Virus record (IMG/VR): IMGVR_UViG_2526164688_000024
Direction: 5' to 3' (one strand)
DNA from: a virus
Lineage: Duplodnaviria; Heunggongvirae; Uroviricota; Caudoviricetes
Length of the DNA stretch: 20,819 bases
A program made the translations under genes and the position numbers. The notes below the pieces were generated by a model. The model worked only from the letters and a program-made list of their open reading frames with translations, was not told where the DNA came from and made no database searches. This document shows positions 859 to 13,071 of this stretch, one piece after another (position 1 is the stretch's first letter; each line of letters opens with the position of its first letter).

Positions 859-2817
859 TTACGCCGTACATTTCACCAGACCGCGGTGATCAACTGGCGC
901 GACACCGGCGTCAATACGCACTTTCGTTGTCACGCCATCCACACTGAAGCCCTCCATCTGATCAATATATGGCGTATCCACACCGTTGAGATAAGCCACT
1001 TCAATCGTATCGGAGCCTTTTGACGCAGCCAGGTAGAAGGTGGTCTGGCTGTTATCATCAAGACGAGGCTCTGCAATAACGGTCGCAAAATCTTTCACCG
1101 GGTTAATAATACCGGCGTTAATGTCAGCCCCCTTGACACTTGAGGAGCGAATGACCTGGTTAGCAACAGACTCCATCGCCGTCGGTACCAGTACGAACGC
1201 AGGACGAATATTCAGATGACGCTCCCCCTCTTTCTGAACGCGCATCAACTGGCGGGCTTTATCCAGCGATGCCACGTCCATTGCAGCGCTCTCCAGTACG
1301 TTTGCATGTTTCGCTTTATCGAACAGACTTACATTATCTGTGGAGATTTTCGGGTTAGACGTCAGAATGGCATAAACCAGATCGGCAATAGTGGATTTCG
1401 CCGCACGGCCCAGTTTCATCGGGACATCGGTCAGCATATTCAGATCATCATTGATAATGGCCTGACGGGTGATACTGAACAGCTCGCCATAGGTCGCCAG
1501 TGCAATAGTGGCCTGTTTATCTCCGGTGGTGACGTATTTATATTCCGCCCCTTCACGCACCTGACGCAGAGCACTGAAGCCCCCCATACCCACACGATGG
1601 GCAATTTTAAAATCAGACAACTGACCTTTCCGCGTCCACTGTTCATAGGTTTCAGGGGCATCTTCCCAGCCCTGCAGAATGGCTTTGTTCGCAACATCCA
1701 GCAGAATATTACCGAAGTCAGACGTACTGTGTGTGAACGCCGCACCGACCATCTGCATCGGGTTATAACTGGAAACCCCAATACCCCGTTCAGTTAGTGA
1801 CATACGGGCATATTCACGCAGGGTCATCCCGTTGTAGACATTATCACGTTCGGTTTTTTCAAATCCGGCACGCGCCATCAGCGCCTGGCGAATCCCGTCC
1901 CCCACAAAATTACCGTTACCGGCATAAATATGAGCCGGGGTATTTTTATTGGATGGCGTGGACTCGCGCCCCATCTCGCTCAACAGCTTTTCGCGGGCCT
2001 GCTCCAGCGAACATTCAGGATCGGCAAGACACTGAGCCTGCAGCGTCTGATAACGCCCGCCAAACATGGCAAACAGATCATTAATACCGTTTACACGCGC
2101 TTTTTGCTCTGCCAGTACCTGCGCACGGATGCTGTTTTCATCCACCACGGGTGCTGCTGCCTGCACTGGCGTCCAGGAGGCTTCAGATTCATTATCCTGT
2201 ACGCGTGGAGCACTGTTGCGTGGCGGAGTAATCATGTTTCGAATGGATTCCGGCATCTTTTTAAATTCCTCTGTACGTTTTGACTGAATACATGCCATTG
2301 CCTTAACGGCTGGCGTTACCTGATCAGCAAATCCATGTGCCAGACATTCGGCACCGGACATCCAGGTCTCATCCGCCAGCATGGCAGCAATTTCATCGGT
2401 GGTTTTCCCGGTTTTCTGTGCATAAGCGGGTAACAGAACCGCCTCAACTTTATCGAGCAGGTCGGCATAGGTGCGCATGTCCTCCGCATCACCGCCCGTA
2501 AAGCCAAATGGTTTATGAATCATCATGAAGGTGTTTTCCGGCATAATGACCGGGTTTCCTACCATCGCAATGACCGACGCCATTGATGCCGCCACACCGT
2601 CGACATAAACGGTAATGGACGCACCATGTGTTTTCAGCGCATTAAAAATGGCGATGCCTTCAAAGACATCGCCACCCGGTGAATTGATATGGAGATTAAT
2701 GTGGGTGATATCGCCCAGTGCATTCAGATCACTGATAAACTGCTTCGCTGTAACACCCCAGAAACCAATCTCGTCATAAATATAAATATCCGCGTCACTC
2801 TGGTGACCAGCCTGCAT
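859..2817 (-). CDS. Prohead protease (ClpP/S49-like) - scaffold - major capsid protein fusion
   Basis: ORF track 859..3078 (739 aa); N-terminal part carries ClpP signature motifs (INSPGGDVFEG, AASMASVIAM, MIHKP), central part is coiled-coil-like, C-terminal ~300 aa looks capsid-like. First in-frame ATG downstream of the portal stop is at 2817 (MQAGHQSDADIYIYDEIGF...); start uncertain, weak SD. Confidence 0.65.
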   Translation of the reverse strand: MQAGHQSDADIYIYDEIGFWGVTAKQFISDLNALGDITHINLHINSPGGDVFEGIAIFNALKTHGASITVYVDGVAASMASVIAMVGNPVIMPENTFMMIHKPFGFTGGDAEDMRTYADLLDKVEAVLLPAYAQKTGKTTDEIAAMLADETWMSGAECLAHGFADQVTPAVKAMACIQSKRTEEFKKMPESIRNMITPPRNSAPRVQDNESEASWTPVQAAAPVVDENSIRAQVLAEQKARVNGINDLFAMFGGRYQTLQAQCLADPECSLEQAREKLLSEMGRESTPSNKNTPAHIYAGNGNFVGDGIRQALMARAGFEKTERDNVYNGMTLREYARMSLTERGIGVSSYNPMQMVGAAFTHSTSDFGNILLDVANKAILQGWEDAPETYEQWTRKGQLSDFKIAHRVGMGGFSALRQVREGAEYKYVTTGDKQATIALATYGELFSITRQAIINDDLNMLTDVPMKLGRAAKSTIADLVYAILTSNPKISTDNVSLFDKAKHANVLESAAMDVASLDKARQLMRVQKEGERHLNIRPAFVLVPTAMESVANQVIRSSSVKGADINAGIINPVKDFATVIAEPRLDDNSQTTFYLAASKGSDTIEVAYLNGVDTPYIDQMEGFSVDGVTTKVRIDAGVAPVDHRGLVKCTA

Positions 2818-2863
2818 CCTGAACCAGGAATTATTCTTCGGACTGGTCGTCGGTGTGCTGCGG

Positions 2864-4339
2864 CTACTGTCGTTTCGTTGCGGCACTGCTGCCTCCTTTA
2901 TCACTGGCCGGATCGGTATCAAATACCAGGTCCAGCTTGCGGTTTTCATCAATTTCGGCCTTGCGCCGACGTTTGACATCATCCGGATTACGACCACCTG
3001 CACGTACCCAGTCTGATTCTGTCGCCGCTCCACCACGAATCTGGATTTTCCAGGCCTCAGCCTCCTTAACAGGATCAATCCACGGCATCACCGGTCCGGA
3101 ATACACCGCGGTATACAGTGAAGAACGGTCAAGATCGCGGGGTAGCCTGATAACACCGGATGCCACAGCCTGTTTCAGCCAGGCACGATACATCGGGCGG
3201 GTGACGGCACCAATAAACCAGTCCTGCAGGATCAGGTAGCCATCAGTGGATTCAACCAGCTCCTGACGCTGGGCGCTGTAAGTGCCGTTATAGTTGCGCG
3301 CTGTACTGGAAAAACTCAGACGACTGCCCGCCGCCACGGCACGCAACTGACCATTACGAAAAGTTTCAAGGTTAGGATTGGGGCGATCCGACTTCACCAT
3401 TCCGATTTCTTCGCCGGGTTTCAGATCGTCGTAAATAATGCCCGGCTGAATGGTAAGCTCACGTTCATTCTCCTTTCTGCCATTACCATCCGGTTCATAC
3501 GCTCTGCCCGTCGCCTTTCCGGATGTACATCCCCAGAGCAGCGGCGATCCTGCTGCAGTCAGCTCAGAATCTTCATATTCTTTCAGGGCACTGAGGCGGA
3601 TCAGCACACCGGACAACAAAGACGTCCCGCGCATCTGGTGCAGACGGCGAACAAATTTAAGATGCAGCATTCGCTCTGCATCCACTTCTTTGGTTTCCAT
3701 CTGCCGTCCGGATACGGGACGGCTTTTATACACCAGATATTTTTCGGGACGCCCCCAGTCATCAACAAACACGCCCTGATTCAGCCTGTTGCTCTCATCA
3801 CTGGTCATGGGAATAAAGTCCGGCTCGAGCGCCTCCAGCCAGAAATGAACACCGGCAGAAGGCGCCAGGCTGTTTATGCGCCCGGAAACCATCTGGGCAA
3901 ACACCTCACCATCGCGCAGCCAGGTACGAAGCATCAGACGTTCCAGCATCGGACGGGTAAACTGCCCGGTGACTTCCGGGCTGACAGACCATTCACTCCA
4001 TCGGGTGCGAATCTCCGCAGCCAGGTCACGGGCAATGGCCCCATTGCGTAATACCGGATGTGGCTCGACAATAATCCCGTTTTTCCCCACCACCCGTTCT
4101 TCCAGCTTGTCAAATACACCAATAACCAGATCGTGGTTGTTATCAAGGTAACGGGCCTGCTCACGTAACGACACGGCCCCGTACTGGCTTAACTGGTCGG
4201 CAGTTCGGTTCTCCCGTCGGGCTTTGTGTGTCCGCGTCGTTTTTACGGCCTCATAAGCCTGGATCACCGCACGGGAACGCAGCCTTGCCGCTTTCCATCC
4301 TGGTGAAAAAACGCCAATCACATCATCAAGAATTGCCAT
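2864..4339 (-). CDS. Portal protein (lambda gpB-like position)
   Basis: ORF track 2864..4411; probable start ATG 4339..4337 (MAILDDVIG...) overlapping the stop of the upstream W-like gene in a TGATG junction; ~491 aa, located between gpW-like and protease-capsid genes as in lambda. Confidence 0.65.
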   Translation of the reverse strand: MAILDDVIGVFSPGWKAARLRSRAVIQAYEAVKTTRTHKARRENRTADQLSQYGAVSLREQARYLDNNHDLVIGVFDKLEERVVGKNGIIVEPHPVLRNGAIARDLAAEIRTRWSEWSVSPEVTGQFTRPMLERLMLRTWLRDGEVFAQMVSGRINSLAPSAGVHFWLEALEPDFIPMTSDESNRLNQGVFVDDWGRPEKYLVYKSRPVSGRQMETKEVDAERMLHLKFVRRLHQMRGTSLLSGVLIRLSALKEYEDSELTAAGSPLLWGCTSGKATGRAYEPDGNGRKENERELTIQPGIIYDDLKPGEEIGMVKSDRPNPNLETFRNGQLRAVAAGSRLSFSSTARNYNGTYSAQRQELVESTDGYLILQDWFIGAVTRPMYRAWLKQAVASGVIRLPRDLDRSSLYTAVYSGPVMPWIDPVKEAEAWKIQIRGGAATESDWVRAGGRNPDDVKRRRKAEIDENRKLDLVFDTDPASDKGGSSAATKRQ

Positions 4340-4551
4340 CAGAACCTCGCCAGCCGGTACCCGGGATGCCCACGTCGTCGTGTAATCAGAGCCGCAAGGC
4401 GGCGCTCCCACTCCTGCCGCCCCTGCCGGATCTCAGATAAGTTTTCCATGGTCATCTGCTGACCATTAAAAGTGACGGATTTTCCGTCCAGCACCGCCAT
4501 TTCAGCTTCCGTATAACGCTGAATCATGGCTTCGATATCATTCTGGTTCAT
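4339..4551 (-). CDS. Head completion protein, lambda gpW-like
   Basis: 70-aa ORF; ATG at 4551..4549 overlaps terL stop (ATGA) with GGAGG 6 nt upstream; C-terminus ...RRRGHPGYRLARF resembles lambda gpW C-terminus (...RRRGPAGFYV). Confidence 0.55.
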   Translation of the reverse strand: MNQNDIEAMIQRYTEAEMAVLDGKSVTFNGQQMTMENLSEIRQGRQEWERRLAALITRRRGHPGYRLARF

Positions 4552-6650
4552 AACCATCCTCCGGAAGTCAGCCAGGGGTTAACATCGTCAGTTACTGTTT
4601 TCTTCCGTTTTTGTTTTTTAACAGGCGTGGATACCGGTTCCGGTGAGGGTGACGGTTCGGTACTGTCCGGGACACACTCCAGCCAGGTCTCCCGGCTCGC
4701 CCACTCCGGTGCATCCGGCCAGCGGATCTTTTCGTATCCATGCAGAATGACCAGAGCCTCGGCATACACCATCAGGTCAAAAGCTTCGTTGGCACCGCGA
4801 CCCGGCTTACTCCATTTCCCGTCACTGCTCCGCTCTTCATACGTCAGTTCGTCGTAAAACCAGCTCCCCAGCCAGTCAGGGAAATGCACATAGCCGGGAC
4901 CTGGCGAGTCACGCCATAACGCGTTATTCACCCGGTCTTTCAGGGCATCCGTCTGAAGAAGCCAGAGCGGCACATCACCTGCGGCCTGCGCCCGGCGGCC
5001 CGTTCGTCCGGTGTTATCAGGGAATGTACGGCTGATCAGTTTTGCGCGCCGGATGCTGTCGCCCTTAAACAGGTAAATACGTTTACCAAGGCCATCACGA
5101 CGGCAACGACGCCAGAATTTATAGGCATTATCAGTGACCCCGTCTTCACCGCCGGAGTCCACCGCCATTGCCATCAGTCGCATTTGTTGAGAAGGATCGG
5201 AGGCCAGCGGCCAGCTTTTATGAAAAACATCCGTCAGCAGGACATCCCAGTCTTCCGGATAGCTGGCCGGATCAATTCGCTGGCTCTCCCCGTCGCAGTC
5301 ACTGCGGCAATGACTGCGTGATGTTGTAACGATCAATAATCCAGCGTTCGCCACGACTGCCATAGCCCGTCACCTGAACCACAAAACGGCGATGACGTCC
5401 CGCCTGCACATCCACTGTCGCCACAAGGAAATTAACGCCATCCGGCACACCGCGGGAAGGAACTGGCTCTGCCCGCTGCTCAAGCAGTTCACTTTTTCGT
5501 TGCTCCATGCTGGCACGAGGAAGATAAGGCAATCCCCAGTCGGTGTTGATAACCGCCCTGAGTGTTTCTTCGCTTCCTGTCGCTTCATACTCCTGTTCTG
5601 CAGTCAGTAATTTGTAAACCAGTTGCGCCCAGGTCTGATACGCAGCAGCTGGCCCTTCCATCCAGAAACTGGCGATACGGGAGCGGCGCGGTTCACCGGA
5701 AACGTTGCCGTTACGATCAATGACCTGACCTTCACGCAACCAGACTCCTGCACTATTGAGCTCACGCTTTTTCTCCGCAGTGATAATGCCGCTGCAGTGC
5801 GGGCAAAGTAGATACGCCGCCTCACTGGCTTTAAAGGGATCCGGTTCATTACGGTAGCCGGTCATGGCATCCATGGCTGGCTGAAAATATTCACCGCAGT
5901 GCGGACATGACCAGTACCAGCGGCGGCGGTCACCACGATTGTAAAGGGAAAGAATACCAGTCGTCGGTGGCGCTTCATGAGGCGACTTACGTCGCCATTT
6001 GCTGTCGCAGATGTCACGTCCCGGCGAGCTCTCCACCAGAGTCATCCCGGCGGACATAAATGTGGTGGTACGTTTTAAGAGGCCAGGGAGAAACCATCAC
6101 CCTCGCTGTCGATATTCTCCGGAAAACGGTCGTAATCGGTTAAGGCGACAAACCGGTAATCCGACGACGACATAATGTTGACCGAGGGCCAACCAATTTT
6201 AAGGAACGAGCCATCCCTGAACGTCTTATCATGGACATTATTGTCGTTACGACGTGGACTCATTCTTTTCTTTACCGCCGCACTGCTTCTGAACGTTCTG
6301 TCGAGGCGCTTTTTAGAATGCTCGCGGGCCTTATCTTCGGTCATCTGCACAACGAGCATGTCCGAAGGATCGCAAACGATGGTATAGACAATCCATCCAT
6401 CGATCAGACCAATGGTCTTCCCTGTTCGCGCAGGACCAACAAAAATCACCGCATCGTATTCACGCGATGCCAGGCAGTTCATGGGCTCAATGATGTAGGG
6501 TGTCAGTTCAGGATCCCATGGCACCGAGTTACCAGCCCCCTTGGGAACACGCATGAATTTTTTAACAGCCTCCGAAATCGGCATGCGACGTGGTGGGGAA
6601 AATCCTGCCGATATGTCCCTTCCCAAATTTCGGGCTGATGAAAAACCCAT
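4548..6650 (-). pseudogene. Terminase large subunit (lambda gpA-like), split into three reading frames
   Basis: Three consecutive minus-strand ORFs (6075..6650, 5299..6057, 4548..5363) in three different frames. Piece 1 has a Walker-A-like VIFVGPARTGKT; piece 2 has WYWSCPHCGEYF (cf. lambda A ...VACPHCGEEQYL); piece 3 has NEAFDLMVYAEAL (cf. lambda A NEALDCFVYALAAL). Frame breaks near 6057-6077 and 5299-5363. Confidence 0.65.
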
Positions 6651-6658
6651 TATTCCTC

Positions 6659-7185
6659 CTAGAGACTCTCTCCTTCCTCATCAGGAATTAATTCAGCAGC
6701 ACAAGCCTCGTAGGATTTTTCCTGAAGAGTGTATCGCAGGTCATCAATGGCCTGCTGTACAACGCCGACGGCCTGAGGAGTCAGGGCGCAATCGCGTTCA
6801 AGAACATCCGGAATTGTCTCCAGAACCTGGACGACAGCCTTTCTCATGGACGAATAGACGATGACTACTTCATCAACGGGGATGAGTTTTCGCTGCTCCT
6901 TTTCCAGCTTGATCCTTTCATTTTCAGACTGGTACCAGTCCTTTCTCTCTTTCGGCTCCATACGGGATGGATCATGAACAGAGTCTGCTGCCTCATGCTT
7001 CACACTAAACAGGGCTGGCCCGACATGCTGCAGGGCGTAAACGGGGTTCCCCTGACAGTCGCAGCCACAGGAGTGTTAGCCGCGAGGTAGCCGTTTTTTA
7101 CTGTGTCCCGGTGAAGCCCAAAGGCCTCAGCGATTTTAAAAACACTCCAGTAATAAGCATCACCGATCCCGCTCACATTTGACAT
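6659..7185 (-). pseudogene. Terminase small subunit (Nu1/NohA-like), frameshifted
   Basis: N-terminal ORF (start ATG 7185..7183 after GGAG; MSNVSGIGDAYYWSVFKIAEAFGLHRDTVKNG = winged-HTH like lambda Nu1) terminates at 7000; the C-terminal part continues in another frame (ORF 6659..7003). Frame switch maps to the GGGG/CCCC runs at ~7043..7052. Confidence 0.55.
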
Positions 7186-7369
7186 AAGCAACTCCATCTG
7201 GCAGGTGAAAATCATGTTTATTTATATATTTCAATTAATTGCAAACTGGTCTAATGACAGGGAGAAAGAAATATTGTACAGGTGAAAAGAGAAATAACTT
7301 TTAATTATCAATAAATTACCAAACATGCTGCCGCCGCCATGGAAATGCAAAAACTAGCCTTTTTCCGCG

Positions 7370-7381
7370 ACGCTCCCGCCC
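7370..7381 (-). other. cosN-like cohesive-end site (lambda-type), with putative cosB/IHF site between it and terS
   Basis: Minus strand reads ACGGGGCGGGAGCGTCGCGG, versus recalled lambda cos ACGGGGCGGCGACCTCGCGG (8/12 identical in the 12-nt core, both flanks identical); lies 155 nt upstream of terS start; IHF-consensus match TATCAATAAATTA at 7306..7318; GC-rich island in AT-rich surroundings. Confidence 0.5.
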
Positions 7382-7569
7382 CGTGGCAGGGGCCCCCACC
7401 GGGAGGACCCGACAGCCTGACAGCCTGACAGCCGTGATGAGCATCTGATACAGCGCTTTACATAATGGCATAGGAATAATTCAGAAGGACATCACAGCAT
7501 GCCCACACAAATTAGTGTGAGTGTCCTGTTTCTTCCTACGCACAGGACTGACGAGCATGAGGGGAAAAT

Positions 7570-7737
7570 ATGCGAACCATAAATGCCTCATCTTCAGCAA
7601 TGCAACCGGCATCCGAACAGGACGATATTGTAAATTCACCTAATTACGAGGACATTGCAGTAGTTGAATTGCAGCTCTGTATTAGCCTGACAGTGACAGA
7701 ATGCGATATTGACTCTGTCACAGGTGAAATAGTTTGA
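7570..7737 (+). CDS. Hypothetical small acidic protein (55 aa)
   Basis: ATG at 7570 preceded by GAGGGG (5-nt spacer); MRTINASSSAMQPASEQDDIVNSPNYEDIAVVELQLCISLTVTECDIDSVTGEIV; below the ORF-track size cutoff; no recognised homologue. Confidence 0.35.
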   Translation: MRTINASSSAMQPASEQDDIVNSPNYEDIAVVELQLCISLTVTECDIDSVTGEIV

Positions 7738-9327: not shown

Positions 9328-9445
9328 GATGGTGTTAACTCCAGTCATCGCTGGCACTACCACTGCTGGTTCAGAGTTAAAAAAACTATGATTTTTTTCA
9401 TGATGTTACCGTAGTATGTGAGTATCCATCGAATAGATACCAAGC

Positions 9446-9465: not shown

Positions 9466-9673
9466 CTTCATTTTCACTTTTTTTAAATCCAACGACAGAC
9501 GGCTGGCATTTAAGTATTGTGAAATATTATCAAATGTAATCATCATTGATTTACAAAAGATACATTTTGCCCCGAAAGGATTCATGTCAGAAACATCAAA
9601 AGATGATGTTCTATACTGGGAACCATGACAACACGGGCATCTAAAGTGAATATGGTTTGTAATATTGTCTACC

Positions 9674-9886
9674 TCAAAGCGCCACTACATGAACAGCGGC
9701 AGGACCTTTAGGTCCGTTCTCAATACCAAATTCAACTTCCTGATTCTCAGTTAATGTTTTGAAATCGTTGCTCTGAATTGCTGAGAAATGGACAAACACA
9801 TCTTTGCTGCCATCTTTCGGCGTGATGAAACCAAAACCTTTTTCAGGGTTAAACCATTTCACTAAACCAGTCATTTTGTTAGACAT
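9674..9886 (-). CDS. cspI: Cold-shock protein CspI
   Basis: 70-aa [73 protein letters not shown], matches recalled CspI; RNP1/RNP2 cold-shock-domain motifs (KGFGFI, VFVHF); long AT-rich 5' leader upstream. Confidence 0.9.
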
Positions 9887-10248
9887 AATTATTACCTTTT
9901 GAAGAAATTAGCCCTTGGGCAGAATGGTCCGAAAAAAAATATCAGAGAGAAAAACCAACAAGGAAATCTCAAGAGGTACAAATAATAAAATTATAACAAT
10001 GACTGCTTCAGATAAATTTGTAACAAACCAGAACACCATTAACGCATGATTAACCACCCATAGCAAGGATTACTTTTGTAAAGAAAAACACAGCAATGAA
10101 AGAATAGCTTTATTTATTAATAAAACGTGTCATTCTGATTAAGACCTTTTATCTTACCCTTAAGATTTCAGGAATTTTGGCTCATGGAAGAGTCCTTTTT
10201 ATTTAAATTTTACATTCCGCGATGTAAATGTTCCGATTTAATATTACC

Positions 10249-12276: not shown

Positions 12277-12557
12277 GAGATTGTGGTGCTTTTTGTGGGA
12301 GTCATCCACTTACGCACTTTGTTTTGCGATGCCAGCAGTTAGCTTCTGCTGTGAAACTATTCATGCAGCAAACCTGCACTTCACCACAATGGTTAGCATA
12401 CTTTTCCTGATTAAGATTTTGCCAAATATGCTAGCCATTGTTTCATGTATTGGACCTCCTTACTTTTTATTAAAGAGATCCAATATTCACTACTCTGTCC
12501 GTATCTCTACTCAGGCATCAGCCTTCTTCGTTATCGTATACAGACGAGCGATGAATT

Positions 12558-12773
12558 TTAATCAGTAATGATGACATTTGCTGCTGCAGGACCTTTAGCA
12601 CCTCTCTCTATAGAGAAGGTAACCTTTTGACCTTCAAATAAGGTTCGATAATTATCATTCTGAATCGCAGAAAAATGCACAAACACATCTTTACTACCAT
12701 CAACAGGAGAAATAAAGCCGAAACCTTTATCAGCGTTAAACCATTTTACTAAACCAGTCATTTTATTTGACAT
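12558..12773 (-). CDS. cspB: Cold-shock protein CspB
   Basis: 71-aa [59 protein letters not shown]..., matches recalled CspB; 5' leader contains the csp 'upstream box' GCCGAAAGGC (minus strand, ~12790). Confidence 0.9.
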
Positions 12774-13071
12774 TCTACATTCCTTAACTTGAGCCTTTCG
12801 GCATAAATGGTTTGCATAACAGAAACGACTTCGTACTTAATTGGAGAGACTCAAAGAAGGAATAAGTGAATAACACCTGAAATGAGAACTGCTTTAGTAA
12901 ACTACTTCGTATATCGTCTGTTCTTCAAACCGACGCAGTCATTAACTCATAGTTGAACATATGAAGCAATGTTTATTTTAGACATCCAGCCACCTTCAAT
13001 CCTATCAAAAAAGTAGTTTTCTCCAGGAACGTGTGTATGGTGCACCAGGTTATCAGTATTAAGGAGTTTTT

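Follow-up and report, generated by a model that had tools for sequence, protein, structure and literature searches.

A lambda-type cos ahead of the terminase genes in an Escherichia coli prophage

Ahead of the terminase genes of the prophage studied here lie about 570 bp without an annotated gene, which raises the question of whether this DNA holds the site at which the virion chromosome is cut and, if it does, of what type that site is. The stretch of DNA analysed, 20,819 nt in all and hereafter called the window, is 99.2–99.8% identical to a lambdoid prophage at the Qin position of E. coli O26:H11 and of many other strains, and it matches the right part of phage Tritos with 97.8% identity. 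Tritos (OV696610), which is prophage 3 of E. coli LF82, is a plaque-forming siphovirus induced from that strain (PMC9928086). All late genes of the window are carried on the minus strand, in the order lysis cassette, cold-shock and gnsB cargo, the gap of about 570 bp, and then terS, terL, a small head-tail gene, the portal gene, a fusion of ClpP-like prohead protease and major capsid protein, and the tail genes. The fusion ORF (859–3078, minus strand) was identified from the O26 annotation and is that of a Gifsy-2/mEp213-type head module. The prophage module is widespread: of 5,426 complete E. coli genomes, 754–768 (about 14%) contain it. Its relatives carry cargo genes, among them those for the Cdt and Stx toxins.

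The original prediction, made from the letters of the window, had placed a lambda-type cos in this gap, upstream of terS. Our analysis upholds it: alignment to lambda returned both the sequence of cosQ and cosN and the spacing between them, and the genes that follow encode a large terminase subunit (TerL) of the gpA family and a small subunit (TerS) related to Nu1. We are highly confident that positions 7198–7410 on the minus strand form the cos of this prophage, a lambda-like one of the Tritos/cdtI type that occupies the Qin position in many E. coli.

Several RNA elements were also recorded in the window. Two cspA-type thermoregulator RNAs (Rfam RF01766, 113 and 162 bits) lie at 9647–10032 and 12542–12934 on the minus strand, both upstream of cold-shock genes of the prophage, which are annotated as cspI and cspB in O26. 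On the same strand, 19548–19719 matches the sok antitoxin RNA (Rfam RF01794, 107 bits), which presumably belongs to a prophage toxin locus of the hok/sok type (hokD). Around cos, scans for promoters, terminators and Rfam families returned nothing notable.

The terminase genes and the state of this copy

The small subunit gene terS (6659–7185, minus strand) encodes a protein of 175 aa when intact, for which DUF1441 (PF07278, E = 1.6e-44) is the sole Pfam match; Phage_Nu1 (PF07471) is not matched, and BLASTP of TerS against Nu1 gave no significant match (E = 4.6). Profile–profile comparison of 46 DUF1441 TerS proteins with 33 relatives of Nu1, both as shallow alignments (Neff 2–3), aligned residues 12–162 of TerS with residues 2–163 of Nu1 at a probability of 88.8% (E = 2.5e-6). 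The match is collinear and takes in the N-terminal helix-turn-helix. With DUF1441 as its only Pfam family and a collinear, remote match to Nu1, TerS appears to be a distant relative of Nu1 that has the same layout, Nu1-like in its working and outside that Pfam family. A search of the TerS sequence against solved structures returned only noise. The large subunit gene terL (4548–6650, minus strand; 699 aa when intact) is of the gpA family, and its intact O26 copy matches both GpA_ATPase (PF05876, E = 4.2e-80) and GpA_nuclease (PF20454, E = 1.8e-86).

The likely start of terS is the ATG at 7185, which is the start in RefSeq and in the Tritos record and has GGAG 6–7 nt upstream. Another ATG, at 7215, is not conserved and reads CTG in phage cdtI. 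Counted from the first base of the cohesive overhang, as are all positions given below with a plus sign, the terS start codon stands at +197, compared with +191 for Nu1 in lambda. A distance of 155 nt between cosN and terS had been proposed earlier; it was counted to the ATG at 7215 and is wrong for that reason.

Neither terS nor terL has, in the window, the intact frame that packaging by its own terminase would need. Relative to O26:H11 11368, terS has lost 1 nt near 7048, and terL has gained 1 nt at 5306 and 2 nt at 6077–6078. The portal gene has compensating indels at 3500 and 3550, so that a stretch of 50 nt is out of frame before the frame is restored. Further private indels of 1–2 nt relative to the same strain stand at 9378, 9478, 13012 and 13148. 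The terL insertion is absent from all 754 complete E. coli genomes with this segment, and the terS deletion from every full-length match in 768 complete genomes. Such indels point either to recent mutations that inactivated the genes or to errors in the sequence.

Because of the frameshifts in terS and terL, this copy may lack the means to package its own DNA, and unless the indels are sequence errors its cos could be used only by a terminase acting in trans. An alternative reading of the locus is therefore that it holds a relic, whose own terminase is dead and which is never cut, or is cut only with the terminase of a related phage. The three frame changes are what such a relic would leave, and two of them, the terL insertion and, in full-length matches, the terS deletion, have no counterpart in some 750 complete genomes with these segments; we regard the relic as possible, though unlikely. 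The cos DNA itself speaks for the other side, being identical from 7150 to 7600 to that of O26 11368, in which the terminase genes are intact, and the indels, private as they are and in some cases situated in homopolymer runs, may be errors of sequence. Moreover, a relic would alter the state of one copy and not the nature of the element. The implication is that packaging, which the original prediction had taken to follow from the site, holds for this type of element but not necessarily for this copy alone.

cosQ, cosN and the cohesive ends

The heptamer GGGTCCT, which we take from the work of Feiss to be lambda cosQ, lies at 7404–7410 on the minus strand and is identical to positions 48473–48479 of the lambda genome (NC_001416). 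From its start to the first overhang base there are 29 nt in the window and 30 nt in lambda. When the two are aligned on the nick (marked ^), lambda reads GGGTCCTTTCCGGTG...ACG^GGGCGG and the window GGGTCCTCCCGGTG...ACG^GGGCGG. When IMG/VR was scanned for exact matches to the 20-mer ACGGGGCGGGAGCGTCGCGG, which lies at 7384–7365 on the minus strand, at least 120 contigs were found, and 123 instances with the same cosN were analysed. Among these listed matches, GGGTCCT is present at 120 of the 123 sites and the 29-nt spacing at 116, and upstream sequences of at least six unrelated kinds merge into a common one exactly at the heptamer. Such convergence is to be expected at a functional left edge of cos, and the 7-bp cosQ is known to be highly conserved among lambda-like phages (PMC4669245).

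On its outer side cosQ is abutted by an 8-bp tandem repeat (7411–7434, plus strand), scored by Tandem Repeats Finder with a period of 8 and 2.9 copies. It consists of two units of GACAGCCT followed by an imperfect third, GACAGCCG, and ends at 7433/34. This repeat had been described as three tandem copies at 7412–7435, of which the repetition stands while the limits and the third copy need correction, and it had been suggested as a cosQ-like or terminase-recognition element, a suggestion we abandon since the true cosQ adjoins it and its copies vary. At the 123 same-cosN sites among the matches listed, GACAGCCT is absent from 31, single in 55, double in 26 and triple in 11; with a copy number ranging from 0 to 3 it is best seen as a variable repeat of the slippage type that belongs to one upstream family, rather than as a sub-site of cos. 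That it should be a functional sub-site all the same, be it cosQ-like or recognized by terminase or a host factor, strikes us as highly improbable. Its position directly beside cosQ, and the presence of one or two units at about two thirds of the listed sites, would fit such a role, but the 31 sites listed that have no copy share the same cosQ, cosN and I2 next to an unrelated upstream sequence, lambda and Gifsy-1 have nothing similar at that position, and the place of cosQ is taken by the real heptamer alongside. The 8-bp repeat is without evident role.

cosN (7368–7383, minus strand) was delimited by alignment to lambda, pattern scans and the starts of phage records, and consists of a 12-nt cohesive-end sequence, GGGCGGGAGCGT (7381–7370), with flanking CG dinucleotides. 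In the alignment to NC_001416 the flanks ACG and CGCGG are the same as in lambda and 8 of the 12 overhang positions match, the mismatches being positions 7, 8, 9 and 11. The left half is thus GGGCGG, and CG stands beside both nick positions, as in a lambda-type cosN. These results bear out the lambda-like cosN that had been predicted on this strand. Its core had been called divergent, and four mismatches are indeed present, but they are not unusual: as the Feiss laboratory has documented, positions 7–12 of cosN commonly vary without a measurable effect on cos cleavage, in contrast to the conserved cosQ and CG flanks (PMC4669245). The cosN of the window follows this published rule exactly, with its changes confined to positions 7–12. 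Rotational symmetry extends to 8 of 16 positions here compared with 10 of 16 in lambda. By analogy with lambda, the nicks would fall between 7382 and 7381 on the minus strand and between 7369 and 7370 on the plus strand. A 51-aa ORF (7316–7471, minus strand) spans both cosQ and cosN and has a counterpart among the hypothetical proteins annotated in phage HannyBb; in all likelihood the ORF is spurious.

The predicted left end coincides with the first base of two phage records. Those of cdtI (AB285204) and Tritos (OV696610, linear) both begin at window position 7381, and that of Tritos ends at 7382. These phages have a TerS identical to that of the window, and their records agree with the earlier proposal that the site marks the ends of the virion genome with an altered 12-nt 5' overhang; the record starts were either measured or set by analogy with lambda. 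In the literature searched we found no virion-end data for exactly this cos, and a full-text search for the 12-mer GGGCGGGAGCGT returned only one unrelated paper. In phage Cr-LKS3, 5' cohesive ends of the lambda-like kind have been determined experimentally (PMC9303873). Cr-LKS3 is a distant phage that also has a DUF1441 TerS.

We also weighed the possibility that the cosN match is a chance one, in a GC-rich patch of a phage that packages by the headful (pac) mechanism. This reading has only the four core mismatches in its favour. The pattern ACGGGGCGGNNNCNTCGCGG, made of the positions shared with lambda, has one match in the window and none in 100 shuffles, and the same is true of the composite pattern cosQ-N(19-25)-CG-GGGCGG-N6-CG (a single match, and 0 of 100 shuffles). 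Conservation of the surrounding block extends over at least 120 viral contigs and is bounded by cosQ on one side and +34 on the other; TerL is of the gpA family; and phage records begin at the site. Together these findings refute the pac reading in practice, and we give it next to no weight. An equally negligible chance attaches to a cos belonging to a phage-inducible chromosomal island (PICI), one that exploits the terminase of a helper phage, for although PICIs do bear a lambda-like cosQ and cosN followed at a similar position by the small gene rpp (PMC9026076), this reading is refuted by the gene context, in which the downstream gene encodes a full-length TerS homologue, the site stands ahead of terS, terL, portal, the gene for the protease-capsid fusion and the tail genes, and the prophage, a complete lambdoid one, has its lysis cassette before the site.

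The cosB region and its pairing with TerS

Among the 123 same-cosN sites listed, conservation begins at cosQ and runs to +34, beyond which the sequences fall into four types of cosB, A to D; the window has type A. The segment between cosN and cosB, CGCGGAAAAAGGCTAGTTTTTG (7348–7369, minus strand; +13 to +34), was delimited by its conservation and includes an A5/T5 inverted repeat. It is nearly invariant in all four cosB types with the same cosN among the matches listed, and is kept, with small changes, in other cosN alleles tied to DUF1441 TerS. We call it I2-like because its role would correspond to that of lambda I2 (PMC4669245). From +35 to about +184 follows type-specific sequence (7198–7347, minus strand), the putative terminase recognition region. 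As in a lambda-type cos, cosB adjoins cosN, lies upstream of terS and contains an IHF site.

This site, TATCAATAAATTA, occupies 7306–7318 on the plus strand (+64 to +76, on the bottom strand of the phage map) and corresponds to lambda I1. It is the sole match to WATCAANNNNTTR in the 20.8-kb window. Because 1.23 such matches are expected window-wide, the presence of one is not significant in itself, but its position is. Among the matches listed, the consensus stands at +64 in all 23 unique type A left ends and at +62 in 40 of the 41 type B left ends, and five other cosN alleles have it between +61 and +63; when cosB segments are shuffled, a match begins within the conserved interval in 0.14% of cases. 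An IHF-consensus match between cosN and terS had been reported at precisely these positions, and it proved exact in position, to lie on the plus strand and to be the only full match in the window. The assignment of the match to cosB is strengthened by the recurrence of the consensus at the same distance in independent cosB types. Even the proven I1 site of lambda falls short of the strict consensus, so that the lack of a consensus in cosB type C says little.

The cosB types are matched by types of TerS. Across all of them the terS start codon lies at +185 to +197 in the matches listed. TerS proteins of types B, C and D are 97–99% identical after residue 60 and 68–77% identical in residues 1–60, and each TerS type is paired with its own cosB (loci L008–L127, IMG/VR). 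Divergence of the TerS N-terminus together with a cosB peculiar to each type indicates that cosB and the N-terminal domain of TerS form one exchangeable module, which appears to be bounded by the conserved I2-like segment on one side and the C-terminal part of TerS on the other. The type-specific pairing supports +35 to about +185 as the probable region of TerS recognition, and resembles the pattern of packaging specificity that separates lambda from 21.

Within type A there are candidates for the elements that TerS would bind. A candidate for the primary binding site, GGCGGCGGCAGCATGTTTGG (7319–7338, minus strand; +44 to +63), is proposed on its position, which is that of R3 in lambda and in N15 (bp 50–65 and bp 48–60, respectively; PMC9026076). 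From +44 to +59 there is hardly any variation within type A, the types differ from one another, and no repeat of GGCGGCGGCAGCATGTTTGG was found when looked for in cosB. An exact 10-mer direct repeat, TTTTCACCTG, emerged from the repeat scan. Its first copy (7279–7288, minus strand; +94 to +103) is a weak candidate for an R site and has variants in some relatives; its second copy (7202–7211, minus strand; +171 to +180) immediately precedes the ribosome-binding site of terS and does not vary within type A. Neither of two repeat scans yielded a convincing lambda-style R-site repeat in cosB type A, the best repeat being this 10-mer pair, which in the 12-mer test is not above shuffles; the same 12-mer pair scan recovers R2 and R1 of lambda at 12 of 12 positions. 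In N15, a single R site can suffice (PMC9026076).

Reading of the sequence also gave a second, speculative IHF-like site, TTTCAATTAATTG (7229–7241, plus strand), which has one mismatch and forms a direct-repeat pair at +63/+140. The two IHF-like sites are 77 bp apart, which is the spacing of the TTTTCACCTG pair. A degenerate direct duplication with a period of 77 bp can be discerned in cosB in this way, with 7229–7241 and 7202–7211 on one side and 7306–7318 and 7279–7288 on the other. Type A may accordingly consist of two tandem modules 77 bp apart, each an IHF-type site with TTTTCACCTG some 18 bp further on (+64/+94 and +141/+171), instead of the R3-I1-R2-R1 order; if true, this would mean a distinct mode of DNA recognition for DUF1441 small terminases. 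Independently of this, the variable 8-bp repeat might tune the efficiency of packaging termination. We consider both proposals improbable.

For the cos as a whole, the most likely mechanism is one modelled on that of lambda. TerS, with its Nu1-like layout, would bind the type-specific segment of cosB through its N-terminal DNA-binding domain, and IHF would bend the DNA at 7306–7318 and so aid this binding. Bound TerS would then place the gpA-family large subunit on cosN, where two nicks 12 bp apart would leave the left chromosome end with the 5' overhang GGGCGGGAGCGT. Packaging would run from cosB towards terS, terL and the head genes and stop at the next cos on the concatemer, a step for which, as in lambda, cosQ would be needed together with cosN and the I2-like segment.

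Comparison with known systems

The cos described here is genuine, of lambda type and already on record, and it conforms throughout to the rules published for such sites in lambda-like phages. As such sites, and this exact one, are on record, we regard it as an ordinary feature. It sets the ends of the virion chromosome and hence the correct linear map of the prophage module, so that its value lies mainly in annotation, and no new question arises from it. Two features agree with what has been published: the right half of cosN varies while its left half is conserved along with cosQ and the CG flanks, and cosB is swapped as a unit with the N-terminal domain of TerS.

A survey of alleles, made with a degenerate scan of IMG/VR for cosQ followed by cosN, returned many alleles, GGGCGGCGCGCT and GGGCGGCAGCGT among them. 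The allele of the window is tied only to DUF1441 TerS (110 of 110), and that of lambda, with 65 instances, is always accompanied by TerS of the Nu1 type (50 of 50 linked). The survey also included hybrid cos sites, in which a right-end side of the DUF1441 type, GGGTCCTTCCGGTGGGGTGGCCTGCCACG, is joined to a left-end side of the lambda type, CGCGGGTTTTCGCTATTTATG..., with GGGCGGAAGGCG or GGGCGGCAGCGG as the cosN allele. On sequence grounds, these hybrids suggest an exchange within cosN between two terminase lineages.

Among the closest known systems are phages cdtI and Tritos, which have the same element as the window, with TerS 100% identical and the left end 98–99% identical. cdtI differs on the right-end side and by a few substitutions in cosB, and in both phages the terminase genes are intact whereas those of the window are frameshifted. 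Likeness to lambda itself comprises the cosQ heptamer, the CG flanks, overhang positions 1–6, which are identical, the IHF site in the first third of cosB, and TerL of the gpA family. In contrast, the I2 and cosB sequences of lambda are unrelated to those of the window, which is without a clear set of R3, R2 and R1, and whose DUF1441 TerS is only remotely similar to Phage_Nu1.

Gifsy-1 of Salmonella is nearer to the window in cosN. Its cosN, GGGCGGCAGCGT, is one base off, at position 7, and its cosQ and flanks are the same. It is a natural variant at positions 8, 9 and 11 with respect to lambda (PMC4669245), and for this reason the window differs from it only at position 7. However, Gifsy-1 has a TerS of the Nu1 family, a lambda-like I2 and a lambda-like layout of R sites (PMC9026076).

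Phages of the mEp213/LLS/Gifsy-2 type share with the window the families of TerS and TerL, the head module with its protease-capsid fusion, and the DUF1441-type backbone of cos, namely GGGTCCTCCCGG...CCACG on one side of the overhang and CGCGG(G/A)AAA(A/C)GGCTAGTTTTT on the other. Here it is the right half of cosN that differs, being CGCGCT instead of GAGCGT; cosB differs as well, and TerS is about 41% identical. For mEp213 and LLS, which have a DUF1441 TerS, cosN has been assigned as GGGCGGCGCGCT, the cos there being likewise deduced from sequence (PMC12315714).

Lastly, N15 and the PICIs combine a lambda-like cosQ and cosN with a cosB that is without the three-repeat layout of lambda (PMC4669245, PMC9026076), and in this they resemble the window. 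PICIs differ in having rpp where the window has terS. In N15, terS starts at +89, there is no IHF site and cosB is simple, whereas the window has a strong IHF site and a long cosB of about 185 bp.
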